From contig OZ245040.1 in assembly GCA_965224195.1 (NCBI GenBank), positions 640,001-704,000 of the forward strand: a stretch of DNA of 64,000 nucleotides, written 5' to 3'. Below the pieces are notes generated by a model. The model was not told the DNA's origin and searched no databases. It worked only from the letters and a program-made list of their open reading frames with translations. Position 1 is the first letter of the stretch. Each line of letters opens with the position of its first letter. A program made the translations under genes and the position numbers. Origin of the DNA: Nitrosopumilus sp. GTDB taxonomy: Archaea > Thermoproteota > Nitrososphaeria > Nitrososphaerales > Nitrosopumilaceae. This document shows, one piece after another, positions 26,895 to 64,000 of the stretch.

Positions 26895-29800
26895 ATGGCT
26901 CCAAAGAGTGTCTTTTTGCTGTTTTTGCTTTTCTCAGTTCTTGCATTGTCTGGCATGTCTCTTGTGTCTGCACAGGCACCATCACCGGGCAGTCCTGTTG
27001 CAGTTACACCTGATAGCACCCCGCCAACCTTCGAGTCAGCAGCACTGGATGAGGGAACCGGAGTTTTGGCAATAACTTTTAATGAGATAATTGCAAACGA
27101 GGGCTTTGACTTGTCTACTGCCGTCTATACAGACAACTCTTTCTCAGTATCTAACAAGGACAACTCTCCAACAGGTATGGCATTCAACACAAATGGAACA
27201 AAGATGTTTGTTGTAGGTTATAATACTGGCAAAATCTACGAGTACGAATTAACTACTCCCTTTGACGTATCCTCCTCCGACTATAAACGCGATTTCTCAG
27301 TATTTTCAGAGGAAAACACTCCAGAAGGCGTGGCATTCAACCCTGCTGGAACAAAGATGTTTGTTGTAGGTGCTGGCAGTGATAAGGTCAATGAGTACAC
27401 ATTAACTACTCCCTTTAACTTATCCACTGCCTCCTATACACGCAATTTCTCAGTATCTTCAGAGGACACGTATCCAGAAGGCGTGGCATTCAACCCGGCT
27501 GGAACAAAGATGTTTGTTGTAGGTTCTAATTATGGTAATGTCTACGAGTACACATTAACTACTCCCTTTAACGTATCTACTGCCGCCTATACAGACAACT
27601 CTTTCTCAGTATCTAACAGAGACACGTCTCCGTCAGGTGTGGCATTTAACCCGGCTGGAACAAAGATGTTTGTTGTAGGTTATGATGGTCACAATGTTAA
27701 CGAGTACACATTAACTGCTCCATTTGACATATCCAATGTCTCCCATACAGGCACTCTCTTAGTACGTTCACAGGACGGGACTCCGGCAGATGTAGCATTC
27801 AACCCTGCTGGAACAAAGATGTTTGTTGTAGGTTATTCTGGCGGGAATATCCACGAGTATGCATTGTCTACTCCAGTTGACCTATCCAAATTATTCATCA
27901 GTGAGTTAGCAAGTGTTAATGGTACCGGCACGGTACTGACTGGTGCCAGCATTGAAACTGTCGGCAACAGCGCCTCCATAGAGATCAAGATGACCGAATC
28001 CCAAAGGCAGTCAGTCATTGCATTGGCTACCCCAGAACTGGACATCATGGCAGCAGCAGTATCTGATGTTTCAGGCAATCAAATAGTTGCAGCACTAGAC
28101 AATATCATTGCAGTAACTAACAGTGTAGCAGCAGTATCACCACCACCACTTGCTGCGCCAACTGGCCTTTCAGTGGCAGTACAGGGCACCACAGCTACCA
28201 TCACCTGGACTGCACCTGCAATATCGGCCAATTCATTCTATGACATTAATTCCGTATCCTATATCGTGAATGTCACTGATACTGCTGCTGGCACCACCGT
28301 ACCGTATACCGTACCTGCTGGCACCACTACCACACATACGGCAACAAACCTGATACCGGGCAAATCTTATGAGGTAACCGTAGAGGCAAAAGCCTTGTTG
28401 TCAGATTCAACCGTTCTGTCCTCCCAACCTACCGCAGCTGTATCCTTTGCTGTGTCTGAACCTCCATCACTTGATGCTCCAACCAACCTTTCAGTGGCTG
28501 TATCTGGCACCACAGCTACTATTACTTGGACTGCACCTACAGTGGATACCAATGACTTCTATACCATTAATAATGTGAGTTATCAAGTGACTGTCCTTGA
28601 TTCTGACGGTTCTGGTGCTGCATCAAGTGGTTCTATAACTGGCACCTCATATACGGCAACAAACCTGACACCGGGTGAGTCATACAATGTATATGTAGTT
28701 GCATATGCTGTCGTTGGATCAAGCTATACTGTGGAATCAGTTGAGGTATCTGCCTCCTTTAATATGCCTGCAGCAGCAGTAGTAGTAGTAGATAGCGGTG
28801 CAGGCACACCGCCATCACCAGATCAGATTAAAGTACAAAATTTAGAGATAGAAAAAACAGGTAACAAAAGAGTTACTTTAACATGGAAAGCACCAGCAAA
28901 TTCAGGTGATAAAGAATTAGATTATTATAGTATCTCATACAATTGTCCTGCTACTCATGGTACAAAATATACTGAGATTCATACTGGCTTTACATCTGTG
29001 TCTATAGATAATTTGGATATAAGCGGCATATGCAGGTTTCAAGTAACTCCAATATATCCTTCTGGTGGTGGTGTTAATAGTCTAATATTTCCTGGTGTTG
29101 ATGGTGGTGTTACTGATAAAGGATTATCAGCTCCTCTAAAAGACATACCATTTACTGAAACACCAAAAGACATACGATTAACTGCTGCAATGAGTGGCAG
29201 TGATGCAATCAAGGTGTCATGGCTTCCAATATCCAGTGATATAGTTTTTTATGAACTGTCTTTGGGTGATGGTGATGACTCACGCGGATTTCAGCCTTTA
29301 AAGGACTTTAAATATGAAGATGATAGGCCAACATCACAAATAATTAAAAACGTTGATCCTGGACGTACATATACTATTTACTTGGTTCTATACAATTATG
29401 AGGGCTCGGTACATTCTACTACTTTTATTAAATATACAGTACCTGTTGACAGCATCCCGCCAAAATTAGAGTCAGCCGCACTGGATGAGGAAACAGGAGT
29501 CCTGACAATAACTTTTGATGAGATAATAGCAAACGAGGGCTTGTCTACTGCCCCCTTTGATTTATCCAAACTGTTCATCAGTGAGTCGGGAAGTGTTAAT
29601 GGTACCGGCACGGCACTGAGCGGTGCCAGCATTGAAACTGTCGGCAACAGCACCTCCATAGAGATCAAGCTGACCGAATCCCAAAGACTGGCAGTCATTG
29701 CATTAACTGTCCCAGAACTGGACATCCTAGAAGCGGCAGTATTTGATGTTTCAGGCAATCAAATAGCTGCGGCACTAGACAATGCCATTGCAGTAACTAA

Positions 29801-32375
29801 CAGTGTACAGCCGCCATCACTTGATGCGCCAACCAACCTTTTAGTCAATGTCATAAACGACACAGCCGCTGAAATTACCTGGACTGCACCTGCAATACCT
29901 GCCAATCCATTCTATGACATTAGTGACGTATCCTATCTCGTGAATGTTACTGATACTGCTGCTGGCACCACCGTACCGTATACCATATCTGACGGCACCA
30001 CTACCACGCATACGGCAACAAACCTGATACCGGGCAAGTCCTATGAGGTAACAGTAAAGGCACTAGTCTTGCTGGGTTCAGGCGATGATTTGGAATCATC
30101 TACCACAGCTGTATCCTTTGATATGCCGACACCTCCGTCACTTGCTGCGCCAACTAACCTTTCAGTCAATGTCATAAACGGCACAGCCGCTGAAATCACC
30201 TGGACTGCACCTGCAATACCTGCCAATCCATTCTATGACATTAGTGACGTATCCTATCTCGTGAATGTCACTGATACTGCTGCTGGCACCACCGTACCGT
30301 ATACCATATCTGACGGCACCACTACCACACATACGGCAACAAACCTGATACCGGGCAAATCTTATGAGGTAACCATAGAGGCAAAAGCCTTGTTGTCAGA
30401 TTCAGCCGTTTTGTCCTCCCAACCTACCGCAGCTGTATCCTTTGCTGTGTCTGAACCACCATCACTTGATGCTCCAACCAACCTTTCAGTGGCTGTATCT
30501 GGCACCACAGCTACTATCACTTGGACTGCACCTACAGTGGATGCCAATGGCTTCTATGCCATTAATGATGTGAGTTATCAAGTGACTGTCGTTGATTCTG
30601 ACGGTTCTGGTGCTGCATCAAGTGGTTCTATAACTGGCACCTCATATACGGCAACAAACCTGACACCGGGTGAGTCATACGATGTATATGTAGTTGCATA
30701 TGCTGCCGTTGGATCAAGCTATACTGTGGAATCAGTTGAGGTATCTGCCTCCTTTGATATGCCTGCAGCAGCAGATGCCCAAGCAGCAGCAGATGCCCAA
30801 GCAGCAGCAGATGCCCAAGCCGCAGCAGATGCCCAAGCCGCAGCAGATGCCCAAGCCGCAGCAGATGCCCAAGCCGCAGCAGATGCCCAAGCCGCAGCAG
30901 ATGCCCAAGCCGCAGCAGATGCCCAAGCCGCAGCAGATGCCCAAGCCGCAGCAGATGCAGCAGCAGATGCCCAAGACATAGCAGATGCTATAGATCCTGC
31001 ACCAGTTGTTGTAACAGTAAATGCTGCAATGTATAACAGCACTGCAATCTTACTGACGTGGACCCAGCCGCCATCATTAGAGGTAACTGGCTATGATTTA
31101 TCATGGGTATCAGAGGATGCTAATGGTTTGCCACATACTTATGGTAGCATATCACTTGACGGTGTAATAGGTGGTACATTAGAATCCCACATATTTAATA
31201 ATGTTAATCCTGGAAAGACATACTACTTTACATTGAGTGTATTTTTCAATGTAGAAGGTTCTCCACAGAGGTTTCACTCTTATGATGTGACATATACAGT
31301 ACCAGATCCTAACGCAGATCCGCCAAAAGATCACAAAAAGAAGAGGAGTACTGGCAGCTCAAATGAGCACTACAAAAAGCCAACCTTTGGACTGTCCCAT
31401 CTGACAGAAAGTCTGATTGTAAATGATGGCATGTGCCTTAATGACAGCTGCGTTGACGTTGTATCATGGCACACAAAATATCCGGAGGATAAAATATTGA
31501 TAGACACCACAAACTATCTGCAGGCCAAAATGTACACTGATAAAACTTTGCGATATGTAGAGTTTTTCTTTGGAGTGCCAAGGCCTGGAGATGCATCTAA
31601 TGCAGAGGTATTCGTAAAGGTAAGCCTGTCTAGAAACTATACCAGTCCAAATAACTATGATGTAGTCAGAATTGATACAACAGATACAGAAGGTTTGCTG
31701 GATGGCACTGTAACTGCTGCAACCATACAGCCAAGCAAATGTCTTAGTGCAGATGTCGAACCAAACTGTCACACTGTAACATTACAGTTTGACTTCAATG
31801 AGGCGCCAATACACAGGGCATTTGCCATAGCGGCAGTTGACATGGACAGACGAGTCCATACAAATTACTTTAATGACGGCTTTGTGGTACTTGGCGAATC
31901 ACTAAATCCAGCAGACATGCACCATGTTGCAAACAGTGGCAAGTATCACTCTAATGAATATGCAAGTACGCACCAGCTGACACTGACCCAGACAGACAGG
32001 GCCAAGAACCTGTGGGCTGACCAGTGGGGATTTGCCTGGACACAAAATGACCATGGTACATGGCTCCAGCTGGAACGAGATGAGTTTGTACGGTACCAGG
32101 ATGACATTAGCAGCGTAATGACCAGAACAAACTCTAACTATGACAGTATGATATCTCATGAGAGGGACCGCGCATTGCAGCATGCAAAGGATATGTATGG
32201 CAGCATATATGACAAACCATCTTCTGATCTGGCAGAGCCTGTAACCATATGGATTGTGCCTTCACCGTCAAGCAAGCTGCAAAACCCGGAGATACTTGAT
32301 GCAATGAAACTGGAGGAAGCAAAGGCAATGAGCTATTTGCAGCATATGGTACGCGCAGATATAAAGCACGATTGA
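26895..32375 (+). CDS. Giant secreted surface protein: beta-propeller repeats (GVAFNPAGTKMFVVG x5), multiple FN3 domains, AAADAQ repeats, thaumarchaeal C-terminal region
   Basis: Signal peptide, five ~50-aa repeats, repeated APTNL...ITWTAP...L.PG..Y.V.V FN3 motifs and near-identical internal DNA duplications. Confidence 0.9.
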   Translation: MAPKSVFLLFLLFSVLALSGMSLVSAQAPSPGSPVAVTPDSTPPTFESAALDEGTGVLAITFNEIIANEGFDLSTAVYTDNSFSVSNKDNSPTGMAFNTNGTKMFVVGYNTGKIYEYELTTPFDVSSSDYKRDFSVFSEENTPEGVAFNPAGTKMFVVGAGSDKVNEYTLTTPFNLSTASYTRNFSVSSEDTYPEGVAFNPAGTKMFVVGSNYGNVYEYTLTTPFNVSTAAYTDNSFSVSNRDTSPSGVAFNPAGTKMFVVGYDGHNVNEYTLTAPFDISNVSHTGTLLVRSQDGTPADVAFNPAGTKMFVVGYSGGNIHEYALSTPVDLSKLFISELASVNGTGTVLTGASIETVGNSASIEIKMTESQRQSVIALATPELDIMAAAVSDVSGNQIVAALDNIIAVTNSVAAVSPPPLAAPTGLSVAVQGTTATITWTAPAISANSFYDINSVSYIVNVTDTAAGTTVPYTVPAGTTTTHTATNLIPGKSYEVTVEAKALLSDSTVLSSQPTAAVSFAVSEPPSLDAPTNLSVAVSGTTATITWTAPTVDTNDFYTINNVSYQVTVLDSDGSGAASSGSITGTSYTATNLTPGESYNVYVVAYAVVGSSYTVESVEVSASFNMPAAAVVVVDSGAGTPPSPDQIKVQNLEIEKTGNKRVTLTWKAPANSGDKELDYYSISYNCPATHGTKYTEIHTGFTSVSIDNLDISGICRFQVTPIYPSGGGVNSLIFPGVDGGVTDKGLSAPLKDIPFTETPKDIRLTAAMSGSDAIKVSWLPISSDIVFYELSLGDGDDSRGFQPLKDFKYEDDRPTSQIIKNVDPGRTYTIYLVLYNYEGSVHSTTFIKYTVPVDSIPPKLESAALDEETGVLTITFDEIIANEGLSTAPFDLSKLFISESGSVNGTGTALSGASIETVGNSTSIEIKLTESQRLAVIALTVPELDILEAAVFDVSGNQIAAALDNAIAVTNSVQPPSLDAPTNLLVNVINDTAAEITWTAPAIPANPFYDISDVSYLVNVTDTAAGTTVPYTISDGTTTTHTATNLIPGKSYEVTVKALVLLGSGDDLESSTTAVSFDMPTPPSLAAPTNLSVNVINGTAAEITWTAPAIPANPFYDISDVSYLVNVTDTAAGTTVPYTISDGTTTTHTATNLIPGKSYEVTIEAKALLSDSAVLSSQPTAAVSFAVSEPPSLDAPTNLSVAVSGTTATITWTAPTVDANGFYAINDVSYQVTVVDSDGSGAASSGSITGTSYTATNLTPGESYDVYVVAYAAVGSSYTVESVEVSASFDMPAAADAQAAADAQAAADAQAAADAQAAADAQAAADAQAAADAQAAADAQAAADAQAAADAQAAADAAADAQDIADAIDPAPVVVTVNAAMYNSTAILLTWTQPPSLEVTGYDLSWVSEDANGLPHTYGSISLDGVIGGTLESHIFNNVNPGKTYYFTLSVFFNVEGSPQRFHSYDVTYTVPDPNADPPKDHKKKRSTGSSNEHYKKPTFGLSHLTESLIVNDGMCLNDSCVDVVSWHTKYPEDKILIDTTNYLQAKMYTDKTLRYVEFFFGVPRPGDASNAEVFVKVSLSRNYTSPNNYDVVRIDTTDTEGLLDGTVTAATIQPSKCLSADVEPNCHTVTLQFDFNEAPIHRAFAIAAVDMDRRVHTNYFNDGFVVLGESLNPADMHHVANSGKYHSNEYASTHQLTLTQTDRAKNLWADQWGFAWTQNDHGTWLQLERDEFVRYQDDISSVMTRTNSNYDSMISHERDRALQHAKDMYGSIYDKPSSDLAEPVTIWIVPSPSSKLQNPEILDAMKLEEAKAMSYLQHMVRADIKHD
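30765..30974 (+). repeat. 18-bp tandem repeat encoding (AAADAQ)n, ~11 units
   Basis: GC(A/C)GCAGCAGATGCCCAA array, in frame. Confidence 0.95.
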
Positions 32376-40889: not shown

Positions 40890-41579
40890 ATGGGCTTAGG
40901 AAGTTATTGGGGTGAAGTAATGGAAGTACTTCGAGAAATAATTCCAATTTATGATAAAGTTAATTCCATTATTTCATTAGGTAAGGATAAAGAGCACCGA
41001 ATTCGTGGAATCTCAAATAGAGTATTTCCAGGAAATAAAATTCTAGATGCAGGTTCAGGTTTTGGGAACATGTCAAAAACTGCTATGAACCTAACAGATG
41101 GAAAAATTTCAATTACACTGTATGATCCACTTGTACCAATGCTAAAAAATACAAGTACATTTTTTGAAGAATCCCCAGATATGGCAAATGGTGTTTTTGA
41201 ACACATCCCATTCAAAGACGGAGAGTTTGATGCAGTGTTATGTGGCTATTCATTAAGAGATGCAATTAATTTGAGAATTGCAATTTCTGAAATTCACAGA
41301 GTGTTGAAAAAAGATGGGAGATTTGTAATTGTGGATTTAGGAAAACCCGATGAAGCATTTTTCAGAGCAGGTGTTTCATTTTATCTAAGATGTATTCTAC
41401 CTATTCTTGCATTTGCAGCAGGAGGACGACTTGGATTAAAGTTTGGAACATTATATCGTACCTACAAAAGATGGCCACAAAATAAAAAACTGGAAGGATT
41501 AATTCTTGAAAAATTTTCAAGAGTAGAGTTTGAGAAAGATCTTATGGGTGGGGCAATAATGGTTGCAGCATACAAATGA
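40890..41579 (+). CDS. Class I SAM-dependent methyltransferase (UbiE/MenG-like)
   Basis: Motifs ILDAGSGFG, IPFKDGEFDAV and EIHRVLKKDGRF. Confidence 0.88.
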   Translation: MGLGSYWGEVMEVLREIIPIYDKVNSIISLGKDKEHRIRGISNRVFPGNKILDAGSGFGNMSKTAMNLTDGKISITLYDPLVPMLKNTSTFFEESPDMANGVFEHIPFKDGEFDAVLCGYSLRDAINLRIAISEIHRVLKKDGRFVIVDLGKPDEAFFRAGVSFYLRCILPILAFAAGGRLGLKFGTLYRTYKRWPQNKKLEGLILEKFSRVEFEKDLMGGAIMVAAYK

Positions 41580-42620
41580 ATAGAGTTCTGATACTAGTCA
41601 ACATCACAGGGTTAATCATTGGAATTTCGTATGGGTTACACGGTCCAATTCTACCAATATTTGCAAAAAATGTCATTGGTGCAACGTATTCCGAACTTGG
41701 TCTAATTGGATTAACCAATTTTATCCCTTACATGTTTATTCCACTTTTTGTAGGGATTCTACTTGATAGAATTAACAACGGATATTTGTTAGCTTTAGGT
41801 GCAGCCATAAATTCTGCATCAATTTATCTGCTATCCATTGCACAATCAGTTCCAGAAATAATGGGGTTTAGAATTATGACAGGTGTAGCTCATGCATTTT
41901 TCTGGCCACCGTGTGAAGCAATTATTTCAAATGAAAGTTCTAAAAAAACAGAGTAAAAAATATCTCATGGTTTACCATGTTTTTTGTAATTGGATTTATG
42001 ATAGGGCCATTACTGGGTACAGCATTACTTGAAGGCCTTGATGTCACATACAGGGTGCTATTCCAAATTGCAGCATTTATTCTCGCTGCTGCAATAATTA
42101 CTTCAGTTGTAGCCTCAAGAAAAAGCGAACAGAGTGACTGCACTGTACCTCAAGTAAAAGGCTGCAATAATTACTTCAGTTGTAGCCTCAAGAAAAAGAG
42201 TAAAAAAACATCACGAGAAATTTTCATTTTCATCAATTAAGAAAATGAAGAGATTTCCAGAAGTGGTAGTGTTGTTGATTTTCTGTACTTCATCGTTTGG
42301 AATAATTCTAACAATTTATCCGGCATTTCTCAATGATAATGGAATGTCTGCATCAGACATTTTGTTATTGTATTTTGTTTTTGGAATTTCGCGTGTTGTA
42401 TCTTTTGCATTAGCAGGAAAATTTGCAAGAAGTACTAGTCAAACTTTGATTGCAGGAACTATTGCAGTATCAGCAGGGCCATAGGGCCAACTATTGGAGA
42501 TCCCATTACACAATCATTTGGAAATGAAACACCGTATGTTGTGTTTTGTATCATAGGAATAAGAGTTACACTATTTGCAATAAGTGCTAGAAAGAAACTA
42601 GAACCACAAAGAATCTCAAA
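41576..42620 (+). pseudogene. MFS transporter, disrupted by a frameshift (~41945), a 73-bp duplication/insertion and an internal deletion (~42480)
   Basis: Consecutive TM-rich fragments, with motif-A-like GILLDRINN. Confidence 0.88.
42088..42198. repeat. Isolated repeat-spacer-repeat unit A (38-bp direct repeat, 35-bp insert)
   Basis: GCTGCAATAATTACTTCAGTTGTAGCCTCAAGAAAAAG at 42088-42125 and 42161-42198. Confidence 0.95.
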
Positions 42621-42750
42621 TTAGATATCCACCGTTCCACATTTTTTAGTCCAAGAATAATTCTCATATTGGATACTCAGTGATGAAATTGATTATTTAG
42701 GCGTAAATTTTGAACATTACGTTTAATTTCAATTTAATAAATATCAAAAC

Positions 42751-43098
42751 ATGTTTGATTATTCGCTAAATATCGGTGGTAGTGAATGGATGATAATTAT
42801 TTTTGTAGCATTGGTTTTGATATTAGGTACAGGGAAATTGCCAGGGGCGGCTAGAAAAATTGGAAAAGCAGTAAATGAATACAATAAAGCCAAAAATGAA
42901 ATTCAAGAGCAAATAAAAGATGTCACAGATGAAGTTCCCAAAATTTCAGGGCCTGTTGAAACAGAACGAGAAAAGTTAGAGATGATTGCAAAATCAGCTG
43001 GAGTAAAAACGGAAGGTAAAACAGATGATGAGATAGGAGAAAGCATTGCATCAAAAATTGGTCAAAAAAGAACGGATGAATCTGAAAAAAAAGAATAG
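42751..43098 (+). CDS. tatA: Twin-arginine translocase TatA/E subunit
   Basis: IGGSEW..I...AL.L.LG..KLP.AARKIGKA..EY.KA. Confidence 0.88.
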   Translation: MFDYSLNIGGSEWMIIIFVALVLILGTGKLPGAARKIGKAVNEYNKAKNEIQEQIKDVTDEVPKISGPVETEREKLEMIAKSAGVKTEGKTDDEIGESIASKIGQKRTDESEKKE

Positions 43099-47426: not shown

Positions 47427-49079
47427 ATGAAATGGAAAACTCTACAACACAATGGAATCTTATTCCCAGCTGCATATGAGGCCCAAGGAATTAAGATAAA
47501 AATCAAAGGGGAGACTGTAAATCTCAATTTAACCCAAGAAGAAATGGTGTATCAATGGGCCAAAAAGAAAGACACACCATATGCTCAAGATAAAGTATTT
47601 CAGAAAAATTTTACAAATGATTTTGCCAAAGAACTAAAAATTAAAAAATTATCTTATGAAGATATTGATTTTTCAAACGCTTACAAAATAATTGACAAAG
47701 AAAAAGATCTCAAAGAGATGATGAGTAAGGAGGATAAAAAATCCCTTGCTGCAAAAAGAAAAGAATTACGAGAAAAACTGAAAACAAAATATGGAATTGC
47801 CATCATGGATGGAAAAGAAGTCGAGATGGGGAATTACATGGCAGAACCTCCAGGTATTTTCATAGGTAGAGGGGAGCATCCACTCAGAGGAAAATGGAAA
47901 CCCCCTGTTACTTCAAAAGATGTAACTCTGAATATGGATAAAGAAGCAAAAAAATCGATGAAAGGGGAATGGAAGAAAATAATACATGATAATGATTCAA
48001 TGTGGCTTGCAAGTTGGATGGATTTTCTTACACAGAAAAGAAAGTATGTGTGGCTCGCAGATAGTTCGGATCTGAAACAAGGCAGAGACAAAGAAAAGTA
48101 CGAGAAAGCTATCAAGCTTGAAAAAGAAATTGAAAAAATCAAAAAAGCAATGGTCAAAGATATGAAAGACACAAAAAAGAGTAATGTTGCTACTGCATGT
48201 TATTTAATTTATAGGACAGCAATGAGAGTAGGAGACGAAAAAGATCCAGATGAGGCAGATACTGTAGGTGCTACAACCCTAAGAAAAGAACACATCAAGA
48301 TTACTACAGATACAATAGAGTTTGACTTTTTAGGAAAAGATAGTGTAAGATGGCAAGAAACTCTAAAGGCAATTGGTGACGACAAACAATTTCAAGAAAA
48401 TCTCAAAAAATTAATTGAAAAGAAAAAACCAAGTGAGGAGATTTTCCACACCATTACATCTAGAAACGTGAACAAGTATTTTTCAGGAATTGTAAAGGGA
48501 TTAACTGCCAAAGTGTTTAGAACATTCCAAGCAACAACAGTTGTCAAAGACTATCTTGTAAAGCATGATAATATGAAGGGAAAATCTGCAACTGAAAAAA
48601 TATACCATGCAAAATTGGCAAATCTTGAAGCTGCAATGATGTGTAATCATAAAAGAACCATTCCAAAAACATTTGAGCAATCATTACAAAAGAAAAGAGA
48701 TACTCTCAAAAAAGTAGGAAAAGAACAAGTTTGGAAAAAAACCCAAGAAACTCTCAAAAAAGTAGAATCAAGTACTCCTAAAACAGATACTCAAAGGAAA
48801 AGTAAAGTAAAAAGAGTCAAGACATTAAATGAACAAATTAAAAAACAAAAAGTCAAGCAAAAAGAAAGAGTAGAAAAACTAGAATTACAAATTGACTTGT
48901 CTGAAAAAACTAAAGACTACAACATTGGTACATCATTAAGAAATTACATTGATCCTCGTGTTTTCAAAGCCTGGACTGACGAAGTTGGTGCAGAATGGGA
49001 AAAATTGTATACCTCTGCATTACAAAAGAAATTCCTATGGGTTAAAAATGAAAATATCCTCTGGAAGGATATAAAGTAA
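47427..49079 (+). CDS. DNA topoisomerase IB (eukaryote-like, thaumarchaeal)
   Basis: Motifs KWKTLQHNG, GRGEHP.RGKWK, MRVGDEK, FLGKDS, AKVFRT, CNH and GTSLRNYIDPR. Confidence 0.96.
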   Translation: MKWKTLQHNGILFPAAYEAQGIKIKIKGETVNLNLTQEEMVYQWAKKKDTPYAQDKVFQKNFTNDFAKELKIKKLSYEDIDFSNAYKIIDKEKDLKEMMSKEDKKSLAAKRKELREKLKTKYGIAIMDGKEVEMGNYMAEPPGIFIGRGEHPLRGKWKPPVTSKDVTLNMDKEAKKSMKGEWKKIIHDNDSMWLASWMDFLTQKRKYVWLADSSDLKQGRDKEKYEKAIKLEKEIEKIKKAMVKDMKDTKKSNVATACYLIYRTAMRVGDEKDPDEADTVGATTLRKEHIKITTDTIEFDFLGKDSVRWQETLKAIGDDKQFQENLKKLIEKKKPSEEIFHTITSRNVNKYFSGIVKGLTAKVFRTFQATTVVKDYLVKHDNMKGKSATEKIYHAKLANLEAAMMCNHKRTIPKTFEQSLQKKRDTLKKVGKEQVWKKTQETLKKVESSTPKTDTQRKSKVKRVKTLNEQIKKQKVKQKERVEKLELQIDLSEKTKDYNIGTSLRNYIDPRVFKAWTDEVGAEWEKLYTSALQKKFLWVKNENILWKDIK

Positions 49080-49754: not shown

Positions 49755-50121
49755 TTAAACACCTAATTCTTTCATTGTATTCCATTCCAAAAAATTTAGA
49801 GATTGTAGCTTGCCAACAATCAAGCATCCCTATTATGAAAAGCACAAAAATTACAAAGCCAATCAAGAATATAGCATACACAATTTTCCATTTCCTCTCT
49901 CTTTTTTTATGAGTTATTGGCAAAAAGACAATATTCATAAAATAAAATAACCACATACCAATCATTGCAATATTTTGAGTTGCTGCAGAAATGGTTCGCT
50001 CCAGACTTGTTTGCCACATTATCATAGGTAAAATCGTAAAGTATACTGCCCCAATACTTAGAAATCCCACTATTACTATATTGATTAAAAATAAAATGTT
50101 GATATTGTAACTAGTGTTCAT
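49741..50121 (-). CDS. Membrane protein
   Basis: 126 aa with three TM segments. Confidence 0.65.
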   Translation of the reverse strand: MNTSYNINILFLINIVIVGFLSIGAVYFTILPMIMWQTSLERTISAATQNIAMIGMWLFYFMNIVFLPITHKKRERKWKIVYAIFLIGFVIFVLFIIGMLDCWQATISKFFGMEYNERIRCLNENI

Positions 50122-50854
50122 TTTTCTTCTTATCTAATCTTTTTTTAATTGCATATAAGATAATAAAAAATACAATCAAAATTGCACCCAATCCCTCAAT
50201 AATTATAGCAGTAAATGTTCCTAGCATAGTAAAAGTTTCACCAGTCTTAGAGGTAACTGGCTATGATTTATCATGGGTATCAACTGGTAAAGGTTCCTAG
50301 CATAGTAAAAATTTCACCAGTCTGCAAGGATTGTCTATTAAAAATAGAATCATCAATTCGAATATTAGAATTAGATTCTCTAAAATCAAGAGGTTTTGGA
50401 GATTCTGAAACACAAAATCCATTTCTGATCATCATATGTTTTTCACATGAGGTTTTACATTCAAACTAAACATGACAATTGTTGCAACATGATCATCTGA
50501 TTTTTTGGTACTAATTGGATATGGACTTGCATCAAGTAAAATAATTTTGTATGGAGAAAAGAATGTGTATGAATCAGTAGGCATGAAATCAACTGTTTTT
50601 GAATGAATTTGATTTTGAACTTGAATCATAGCAGTTACTTGTCCTCCCCAAACACAAGTAACATCAGAAGGACAACGTGAATCATCTACATCATAAAAAG
50701 TAAATTTAAGATCATCTACATGGATAGTCTGTCCAAGGTGTAATTTGATTTCCTTTTCTGCAAAAGATTCGTTTACCATACTAGTTGAAATTAAAACTGA
50801 AAACACAACTAAAATTATCAAATAATAACTAGTTTTCATTCTATATTTCTCCAT
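50110..50854 (-). pseudogene. Secreted/membrane-anchored protein (DSRCPSDV.CVW.G motif), frameshifted at ~50450 and interrupted by a 76-bp duplication/insertion
   Basis: N-terminal ORF 50432..50854. The downstream frame ...QSLQTGEIFTMLGTF is interrupted and resumes as ...GTFTAIIIEGLGAILIVFFIILYAIKKR. Confidence 0.7.
50211..50322. repeat. Isolated repeat-spacer-repeat unit B (36-bp direct repeat with 2 mismatches, 40-bp insert)
   Basis: Repeats at 50211-50246 and 50287-50322. The first 36 bp of the insert equal 31077-31112. Confidence 0.93.
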
Positions 50855-63812: not shown

Positions 63813-63920
63813 CTTGATCAATACTAAAAACTATGAATCATCTCAAGTAAGTTTCTCAGCCTCTTCTTTTTCAGAATTCATTTTTCTTGATCAATACTAA
63901 AAACTATGAATCATCTCAAG
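63813..63920. repeat. Isolated repeat-spacer-repeat unit C (35-bp perfect direct repeat, 38-bp insert)
   Basis: CTTGATCAATACTAAAAACTATGAATCATCTCAAG at 63813-63847 and 63886-63920. Confidence 0.95.
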
Positions 63921-64000
63921 AGCAACACCAAAACACATTGCCTACCCCTTCACAATCTTGGCATCGCATATGCTCTGATACGGGCAGAACATGCATGCTT

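Follow-up and report, generated by a model that had tools for sequence, protein, structure and literature searches.

A spacer-sized insert between two target copies

The window analysed here is a 64,000-nucleotide (nt) stretch of Nitrosopumilus sp., positions C1:640001-704000 (contig C1 is OZ245040.1) of genome G000, which comprises ~2.07 Mb in two contigs with 33.6% G+C. The element in question, unit B, is a repeat-insert-repeat structure in which a 40-nt piece matching a family of giant surface-protein genes stands between two copies of a 36-nt target, within a gene for a small secreted or membrane-anchored protein. The features of the unit and of its in-window source are as follows.

50111-50854, minus strand: broken gene for a small secreted or membrane-anchored protein; no Pfam family; homologue intact in a related species (G015)
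50211-50246, strand not assigned: DR1, left target copy, 36 nt (37 counting the ambiguous T at 50247)
50247-50286, plus strand: insert of unit B, 40 nt, spacer-sized
50287-50322, strand not assigned: DR2, right target copy, 36 nt
26895-32375, plus strand: surface-protein gene, 1826 amino acids (aa), seven fibronectin type III stretches; one of four giant donor-bearing paralogues
31077-31112, plus strand: in-window donor copy, preceded by CCATCA; the genome has four paralogous copies, another of which is the better donor

DR1 and DR2 differ by two mismatches across 36 nt, and a repeat search of the window returns the pair as 50211-50247 and 50287-50323, 37 nt in length with 95% identity and a spacing of 76. 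A 30-nt repeat core within the pair (50217-50246 and 50293-50322) contains a single mismatch and has no matches in shuffled sequence. The T at 50247 and 50323 is ambiguous, being compatible with the repeat, the target flank and the donor, and unit B can therefore be read either as a 36-nt repeat with a 40-nt insert or as 37 nt with 39 nt.

The minus-strand frame ends at unit B in ...QSLQTGEIFTMLGTFTS followed by a stop codon, and the truncated protein terminates there as ...TGEIFTMLGTFTS, again followed by a stop. Upon removal of the 76 nt, the frame reads through to ...TFTAIIIEGLGAILIVFFIILYAIKKRLDKKKNEH and its stop, which corresponds to a hydrophobic C-terminal membrane anchor, and the G015 homologue is a single open reading frame (ORF) of 194 aa that includes this anchor. 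The preliminary description of this DNA had placed the insert in the C-terminal part of a membrane-anchored protein gene, which is correct in that the 76 nt cut off the transmembrane anchor. No Pfam family was matched by the protein of the broken gene or by its G015 homologue. A second lesion relative to G015, a frameshift near 50432-50480, separates a 140-aa N-terminal ORF (50432-50854) from the remainder.

Empty sites and the reality of the insertion

The orthologous site in G015 contains one 36-nt target copy and no insert (L005:1405-1440). Public sequencing runs were also compared, of which X1 and X2 bear the same organism label and belong to one study but to different samples, and X3 comes from another study. 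In X2, a 16.7-kb contig joins position 50235 directly to 50312, with exactly 76 nt skipped and identical flanks; because DR1 and DR2 have no 31-mer in common, this join is not a graph shortcut. The left junction of unit B is spanned by a 551-nt contig of X3 (49756-50276, with 2 differences in 521 flank positions), and the right junction by a contig of X1 (50247-50322).

A chimeric assembly, against which the preliminary description had cautioned, would involve a false join made by way of the repeated surface-protein sequence. At least 36 nt of the insert are repeated in four other copies, the de Bruijn contigs of X1 break at it so that no single X1 contig bridges the left junction, and an 88-nt X1 contig in which 12 nt of donor flank are joined to the insert and DR2 is a graph chimera. 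However, the contigs of two studies carry 31-mers unique to the unit, in X3 at the left junction and in X1 at the right, and the 76-nt-free allele of X2 represents a clean alternative state. Additionally, misassembly cannot give 37 motif-sharing units, of which 25 have perfect duplications and whose inserts mostly have no second copy (see below). An artefact of assembly or sequencing is scarcely credible, and unit B is a real insertion that is polymorphic among near-identical strains.

DR1 is identical to the single target copy in X2 and equals the G015 copy at both positions at which DR1 and DR2 vary, which indicates that DR2 bears the derived changes; judged against DR1, the empty allele of X2 and G015, these are T>G at repeat position 6 and G>A at position 25. 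The strain sampled in X2 either never gained unit B or lost it by deletion between the repeats, and we lean towards loss because the more distant X3 has the unit. Alternatively, unit B may be a recent gain, with error-prone gap repair.

Donor of the insert

The window contains two occurrences, and no more, of the 36-mer TTAGAGG...GGTATCA, one at 31077-31112 and one at 50247-50282, each on the plus strand; two matches to it were obtained in none of 100 dinucleotide-preserving shuffles. In a BLAST search against the genome, the insert matches four paralogous copies in giant genes of ~1826, 4185, 1776 and 3193 aa. The best donor is C1:809917-809956, which lies outside the window in the ~4185-aa gene and agrees at 39 of 40 positions, including the ACTG end, with one G/A difference; in the other three copies the end is GAGG or GAGA. 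In the insert, the GAT seen in three paralogues occurs together with the ACTG of the remaining one, and no 40/40 donor is present in this assembly. It follows that the insert was taken from an earlier or foreign allele of the surface-protein family, or that one base has changed since. All four donor copies are preceded by CCATCA.

Several statements of the preliminary description bear on this result. The 36/36 match between 50247-50282 and 31077-31112 is borne out, as is the difference between the ACTG end of the insert and the GAGG of the window source, and the suggestion that the true donor may be a paralogue agrees with the better fit of C1:809917-809956; the 40/40 paralogue match that it proposed to look for by BLASTN does not exist in the assembly. 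It had further argued that a spacer-sized, self-derived piece was placed elsewhere in a manner that slippage cannot explain, and had named extended donor-target homology as the mark of template switching. The former stands, and the latter was not found: the only base common to donor and target is the ambiguous T at the left junction, and at the right junction there is none.

Template switching, replication slippage or microhomology-mediated repair could in principle have copied 40 nt into a break without CRISPR proteins, and an insert derived from a multi-copy gene family of the same genome, together with the one T shared at the left junction, is what such copying might leave. With no homology beyond that T at either junction, however, template switching lacks a substrate. 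It also predicts none of the following: the 36-nt target duplication, 37 units with array-like periods of 66-76, and a one-sided target motif that recurs in other species. Additionally, 29 of the 37 inserts have no source in the genome. Copying of this kind is a very improbable origin for unit B.

Two in-frame tandem repeats are also present in the window. One, of 18 nt in 14 copies (GCAGCAGATGCCCAAGC), occupies 30711-31028, immediately upstream of the giant gene's donor site; the other, of 12 nt in at least 15 copies, occupies 634-885.

A family of 37 repeat-insert-repeat units

The whole genome was scanned for isolated repeats in two copies, at least 28 nt long and with a period of 55-100, which gave 40 rows. 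Three were dropped as likely tandem protein-coding repeats, namely 129726 (29 nt, 3 mismatches, period 66), 146229 (period 84) and 963056 (period 81, with its own insert repeated next door), of which only 963056 was checked, by BLAST. The 37 units that were kept have periods of 66-76, distributed as 73 (11 units), 72 (7), 74 (6), 71 (4), 75 (3), 76 (2), 70 (2), 69 (1) and 66 (1). Each unit has its own repeat, and 25 of the 37 repeat pairs are perfect. The repeats are mostly 35-39 nt long, with an overall scatter of 30-43 nt and a mode of 36-37, and the inserts, of 32-40 nt, are all different, unrelated to each other and devoid of terminal inverted repeats. Two further members of the family lie in the window.

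42088-42198, strand not assigned: sister unit A, 38-nt perfect repeat with 35-nt insert, period 73, in a major facilitator superfamily (MFS) transporter gene
63813-63920, strand not assigned: sister unit C, 35-nt perfect repeat with 38-nt insert, period 73, ~3.3 kb before a type I-G CRISPR array

At the site of unit A, 21 of 24 same-genus genomes hold one target copy and no insert, which appears as two alignment pieces overlapping by ~37 nt, and the empty site was confirmed by alignment with G015 and G017. The MFS transporter gene (window 41576-42800) is a single 384-aa ORF in G015 and is divided here into at least three ORFs (41576-41956, 41977-42240 and 42245-42484), with lesions besides the 73-nt unit. 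For unit C, an informative orthologous site was not found among the 40 relatives searched.

The units are clustered in the genome. Seven lie within 31 kb (C1:882675-912702), a number reached in none of 5000 random placements. This region contains an insertion sequence (IS)-type DDE transposase, an MCM-like P-loop ORF, a truncated citrate/sulfate transporter and FN3/PKD surface-protein genes, and looks like a flexible island.

CRISPR arrays and adaptation genes

Three CRISPR arrays with 288 spacers in all are present in the genome, each with its own adaptation genes.

C1:707205-713740, 3.2 kb past the window end: array A1, type I-G, 90 identical 36-nt repeats and 89 spacers of 34-42 nt
C1:941990-946529: array A2, 30-nt repeat, 68 spacers of 32-39 nt, beside a stand-alone cas4-cas1-cas2 module
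Array A3, type I-B: 37-nt repeat, 131 spacers of 32-48 nt, with cas7, cas5, cas3, cas6b, cas1 and cas4

Array A1 has a degenerate repeat at its far end, and its repeat, read in the direction of the CRISPR RNA (crRNA), ends in ...ATTGAAGC. Its cas genes encode a 556-aa Cas4-Cas1 fusion, a Cas3 with helicase and C-terminal HD domains, GSU0054 and GSU0053. An AT-rich stretch of 171 nt lies between the array and a 96-aa ORF, and from the sequence we take the former for a putative leader and the latter for a putative cas2. All three Cas1 frames are open without internal stops, and each lies in a cas locus with Cas4, adjoining an array of 69-132 repeats; Cas2 is confirmed by Pfam only in the stand-alone module. 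The resident adaptation genes are thus apparently intact.

The dimensions of the isolated units resemble those of the arrays. The spacers of the three arrays are mostly 35-38 nt long, and the array periods of ~72-73 (A1 and A3) and 66-67 (A2) correspond to the range of the isolated units. The repeat of unit B, of 36 nt (37 with the ambiguous T), has the length of the resident I-G repeat (36 nt) and of the resident I-B repeat (37 nt), and its insert of 40 (or 39) nt falls in the upper tail of the array spacer lengths, which span 32-48 nt. Two units with 30-nt repeats, C1:912673 (period 66) and C1:1228750 (period 69), fit array A2. An assignment of the integrase by repeat length was attempted and abandoned, as the scatter fails to separate a 36-nt from a 37-nt ruler.

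The target duplications of casposons are ~14-15 bp, not 36. A footprint of a casposon, an IS element or a tyrosine recombinase would be an alternative source of the units, in view of the casposons with a Cas1-like casposase that are known in the genus (PMC8464041) and of the IS-type transposases present in this genome. However, all three Cas1 matches in the genome lie in CRISPR-cas loci beside arrays, with no casposase-type cas1 elsewhere, and the inserts differ from each other and carry neither terminal inverted repeats nor any shared element sequence. Another mobile element or integrase is an exceedingly improbable agent.

Several other features of the arrays and their surroundings were observed. 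When reverse-complemented, the A1 spacer after repeat 52 (C1 ~710963-711001; L003:3863-3901) reads as a related variant of the I-G repeat that G118, G055 and G132 carry, and A1 appears to have acquired a piece of the CRISPR array of another strain or element. At C1:1626224-1626333, distant from any cas gene, lies an orphan degenerate I-G mini-array in which a 38-nt spacer separates a repeat with 4 mismatches from a second, truncated one; the repeat variant is that of G009, G014 and G082. In A2, four repeat-spacer units are duplicated internally, with spacers 24-25 recurring as 28-29. Between unit C and the I-G array, a 1040-aa UvrD-type helicase is fused to a PD-(D/E)XK/Cas4-like nuclease (L001:7942-11064, equal to C1:703942-707064, with its first bases at window 63942-64000); being of the AddA/helicase-nuclease kind, it could feed prespacers. 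Elsewhere in the window, a 550-aa eukaryote-like ORF (47427-49079) may encode topoisomerase IB, a thaumarchaeal hallmark.

Target motif and donor flanks

A Gibbs search of the 37 units in both orientations with offsets of +/-2 reveals the motif S-T|G-Y-W-V-M-A, which is confined to one end of the repeat and has an information content of 5.02 versus 3.70 +/- 0.12 in 40 control sets (maximum 3.97). Position -2 is S and never T, position -1 is T in 22/37 and position +1 is G in 33/37, and T is found at the V position in 1/37; no signal is present at the other repeat end. Since the motif was fitted on G000 units, the matrix was tested on units of other species against random sites there, with one collagen-like row dropped for G009 and a duplicated unit counted once for G118. 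The units of both species score above random (G118, 7 units, p 0.001; G009, 9 units, p 0.007).

By eye, the motif fits the complementary-strand starts of the I-G and I-B repeats (GCTTCAAT and GTTTCAAT) at 5/6 positions, the I-B leader-repeat junction (CA|GTCAAAAT) at 6/8 positions and the last two bases of the A1 leader (CT|). The target of unit B, AGCA|GTAAATG, appears most like the I-B leader-repeat junction. The likeness to canonical sites is confined to the first 6-8 nt of the duplicated targets.

Near-full-length donors in the genome were mapped for 8/37 inserts. TCA directly precedes 3/8 of these donors, or 5/8 if its position may slip by 1 nt, and in every case it lies on the side opposite the motif; the chance of at least 3/8 is ~3e-4 (binomial). 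No flank pattern is found on the motif-near side of the eight donors. The units show a specific first site, a ruler-set second site and, on the second side, a signal like a protospacer-adjacent motif (PAM). In the preliminary description, the CCATCA before the in-window source was read as a TCA of the TCN-type PAMs of type I systems; TCA does precede the donor of unit B, and its role as a PAM is tentative, with 3/8 donors. TCN-type PAMs are known for some I-B systems. When the I-G and I-B arrays were compared with ~120 genomes of the genus, matches were found only on the repeats and no spacer was matched. Conversely, ~880 spacers from the I-G arrays of 10 relatives yield one protospacer in the genome, at C1:858342-858381, with the flank TAC.

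Self-derived inserts and selection

None of the 288 array spacers matches the genome over more than 23 nt, in contrast to the eight self-derived inserts among the 37 units (Fisher p = 1.4e-8). This excess is expected if off-array units give no guide RNA and if self-matching array guides are lethal. The insert cores of units A and C have no exact match in viral contigs, and no overlap was found between the inserts and the array spacers of G000 or of 10 relatives.

Unit B could also be regarded as a functional mini-CRISPR, transcribed and processed to a self-targeting guide that regulates surface-protein genes; it has the repeat-spacer-repeat layout, and its "spacer" matches four surface-protein genes beside TCA. 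A functional array is recognized by a leader and by repeats of a family that the resident Cas6/Csb2 serves. The repeat of unit B is unique to its own site within coding sequence, shows no likeness to the I-G repeat, the only one tested, above random, and is not accompanied by a leader. Its two copies differ at 2 positions in a decaying gene, and each of the other 36 units has another repeat. Furthermore, the lack of any full self match among the genuine spacers argues that expressed self-guides are not tolerated. A regulatory guide encoded by unit B is, all told, highly improbable.

The positions of the units are not random with respect to genes. After in silico restoration, 57% of the targets fall within open frames that reach 100 aa or more, versus 85% of 2000 random positions, and the median frame spanning the restored target is 128 aa versus 308 aa at random positions. 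This depletion of scars in long genes is a footprint of selection. The periods show no excess of multiples of three (12/37).

Units in other species

Species G009 has a type I-G system plus a module with a 30-nt-repeat array, and nine units were found in its first 400 kb (L028-L047), mostly with a 33-nt repeat and a 38-40-nt insert. Species G118 has one intact cas1 (the I-G fusion) in addition to a short cas1 fragment, and 7 distinct units with repeats of 36-38 nt were found in 400 kb; an I-G module alone can therefore accompany such units. The genome G018 was considered as a clean cas1-free control and failed in this role, with 3 units of period exactly 72 in its first 400 kb (L050-L069) despite no Cas1 match. 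The motif scores of these units are not above random (3 units, p 0.30), and the units may be relics of a lost CRISPR system or result from integration in trans.

Origin of unit B

Unit B very probably arose by off-target spacer integration, outside any array, through a resident Cas1-Cas2 integrase. The data support this origin through the anatomy of the unit and the excess of self-derived inserts, and the link to CRISPR follows from the three arrays with their adaptation genes and cas loci, the 37 units of like build, the shared motif and the empty sites.

In the proposed sequence of events, a resident Cas1-Cas2(-Cas4) complex would capture a prespacer of ~40 nt, beside TCA, from a fibronectin III repeat of the cell's own giant surface-protein gene. 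One 3' end would be joined at the leader-repeat-like site ...AGCA|GTAAATG... in the small membrane-protein gene, and the other would be joined ~36 nt away on the opposite strand. Gap repair would then duplicate the 36 nt between the cuts, and the product would be a repeat-insert-repeat structure with the ruler and insert size of a CRISPR repeat-spacer unit and with a repeat unique to the site. Unit B probably makes no crRNA and hence causes no autoimmunity; the absence of crRNA from such units would explain why self inserts survive here and not in arrays. As to the module that acted on unit B, a rough split slightly favours type I-B, leaves type I-G as a weaker candidate and makes the 30-nt-repeat module an unlikely one.

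We infer, rather than observe, the role of Cas1 as the agent of unit B, the order of joining and the absence of a crRNA. A number of observations weigh against this origin. The insert of 40 nt is long, since spacers of at least 40 nt are rare in the arrays (3/89 for I-G and 4/131 for I-B), and its sequence mixes features of several paralogues with no exact donor in the assembly. DR2 carries two substitutions in 36 nt even though the flanks of the empty allele in X2 are identical. Compared over their full length, the targets resemble the I-G repeat no more than random sites do (mean 14.3 versus 14.1 identities), and repeat lengths counted from the G of the motif scatter (36 in ten units, 35 in eight, 37 in four, 38 in four, and others 29-43). 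The units of G009 mostly have 33-nt repeats with a period of 71-73, yet the arrays of that species have repeats of 36 and 30 nt, and G018, in which Cas1 has no match, contains one unit of period 80 besides the three of period 72. A comparison of the three arrays with a phage collection gave no match and thus no PAM of genuine spacers from that source, and the type I-G systems described in two studies use TTN/TTC and not TCA (PMC6547450, PMC10504553).

Comparison with known systems

In Escherichia coli, over-produced Cas1-Cas2 is reported to integrate off target and to generate "neo-CRISPR" loci (Nivala, Shipman & Church 2018, Nat Microbiol 3:310). As in that case, the units described here consist of a spacer-sized insert at a non-CRISPR site with a duplication of repeat length, which forms a one-spacer array with a novel repeat. 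The E. coli events were reportedly rare, involved a type I-E system with over-produced Cas1-Cas2 and oligonucleotides fed to the cells, and were detected by deep sequencing; according to a citing preprint, natural occurrence was addressed there only as "circumstantial evidence" in two other species. The present units, in contrast, are fixed or polymorphic in wild-type archaea, number 37 per 2 Mb, follow a 36-nt ruler and recur in the sampled stretches of at least two further cas1-bearing species.

In vitro, Cas1-Cas2 of Pyrococcus furiosus integrates at non-CRISPR sites separated by one repeat length, and G is strongly preferred at the integration site (PMC6698737). The paired sites at repeat length, the G at the joined base and the resemblance of the sites to repeat borders and the leader end are shared with the units; the P. 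furiosus work differs in its plasmid assay and 30-bp ruler, and does not constitute evidence of natural genomic scars (PMC6698737).

Canonical type I-G (I-U) adaptation by Cas4-Cas1 and Cas2 yields spacers of ~36 bp (PMC6547450, PMC10504553), and the I-U repeat of Geobacter sulfurreducens ends in AGC, as does the A1 repeat (...ATTGAAGC) (PMC6547450). The motif at one end with TCA at the other would fit this mode of adaptation. The canonical process differs in its PAM, TTN/TTC versus TCA, and in that integration takes place at the leader-proximal repeat of the array (PMC6547450, PMC10504553). The "ectopic" acquisition of Streptococcus thermophilus and S. mutans likewise occurs away from the leader-proximal repeat, but within the array at genuine repeats and not in unrelated chromosomal sequence (PMC7999890, PMC8265633, PMC8047081).

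Casposon integration shares with the present units a Cas1-family integrase, staggered joining and a target-site duplication produced by fill-in (PMC8464041, PMC6563490), and a family 1 casposase is known from Ca. Nitrosopumilus koreensis (PMC8464041). Casposons differ in being multi-kb elements with terminal inverted repeats, and no casposase-type cas1 was seen outside the cas loci of this genome. In the main-text literature searched, including a survey of thaumarchaeal mobile elements (PMC6563490), no such scars are reported in Thaumarchaeota. Off-target integration as such is already known, and dozens of natural scars per genome are not described in the literature searched.

Implications for CRISPR adaptation

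The wider pattern, with dozens of units per genome in several species and a readable target code, is more interesting than unit B itself. All three sampled species that bear cas1 have a scar density of roughly 18 per Mb, and one scar differs in its presence between samples of one organism. On balance, we incline to the view that off-target integration is ongoing and frequent in this genus of marine ammonia-oxidising archaea.

Among the hidden costs assumed for CRISPR adaptation, off-target integration is the main one, and it has also been proposed as an origin of new arrays; so far, E. coli with over-produced Cas1-Cas2 and test-tube assays have supplied the evidence. A scarred wild-type genome together with its relatives would allow the rate and the fitness cost to be read from the depletion in long genes, and would also give the target rule of the integrase (a one-sided motif and a ruler) and the share of self DNA before removal by autoimmunity. 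For genome annotation, two-repeat "questionable CRISPRs" and unexplained frameshifting insertions of 70-76 nt in these archaea would become readable as adaptation scars. If this interpretation is true, CRISPR adaptation is a measurable insertional mutagen that breaks transporter and surface/membrane-protein genes. The scars would then record DNA captured before the filtering by interference (22% self versus 0% in arrays), reveal the intrinsic target code of the integrase in vivo and constitute raw material for new CRISPR arrays.

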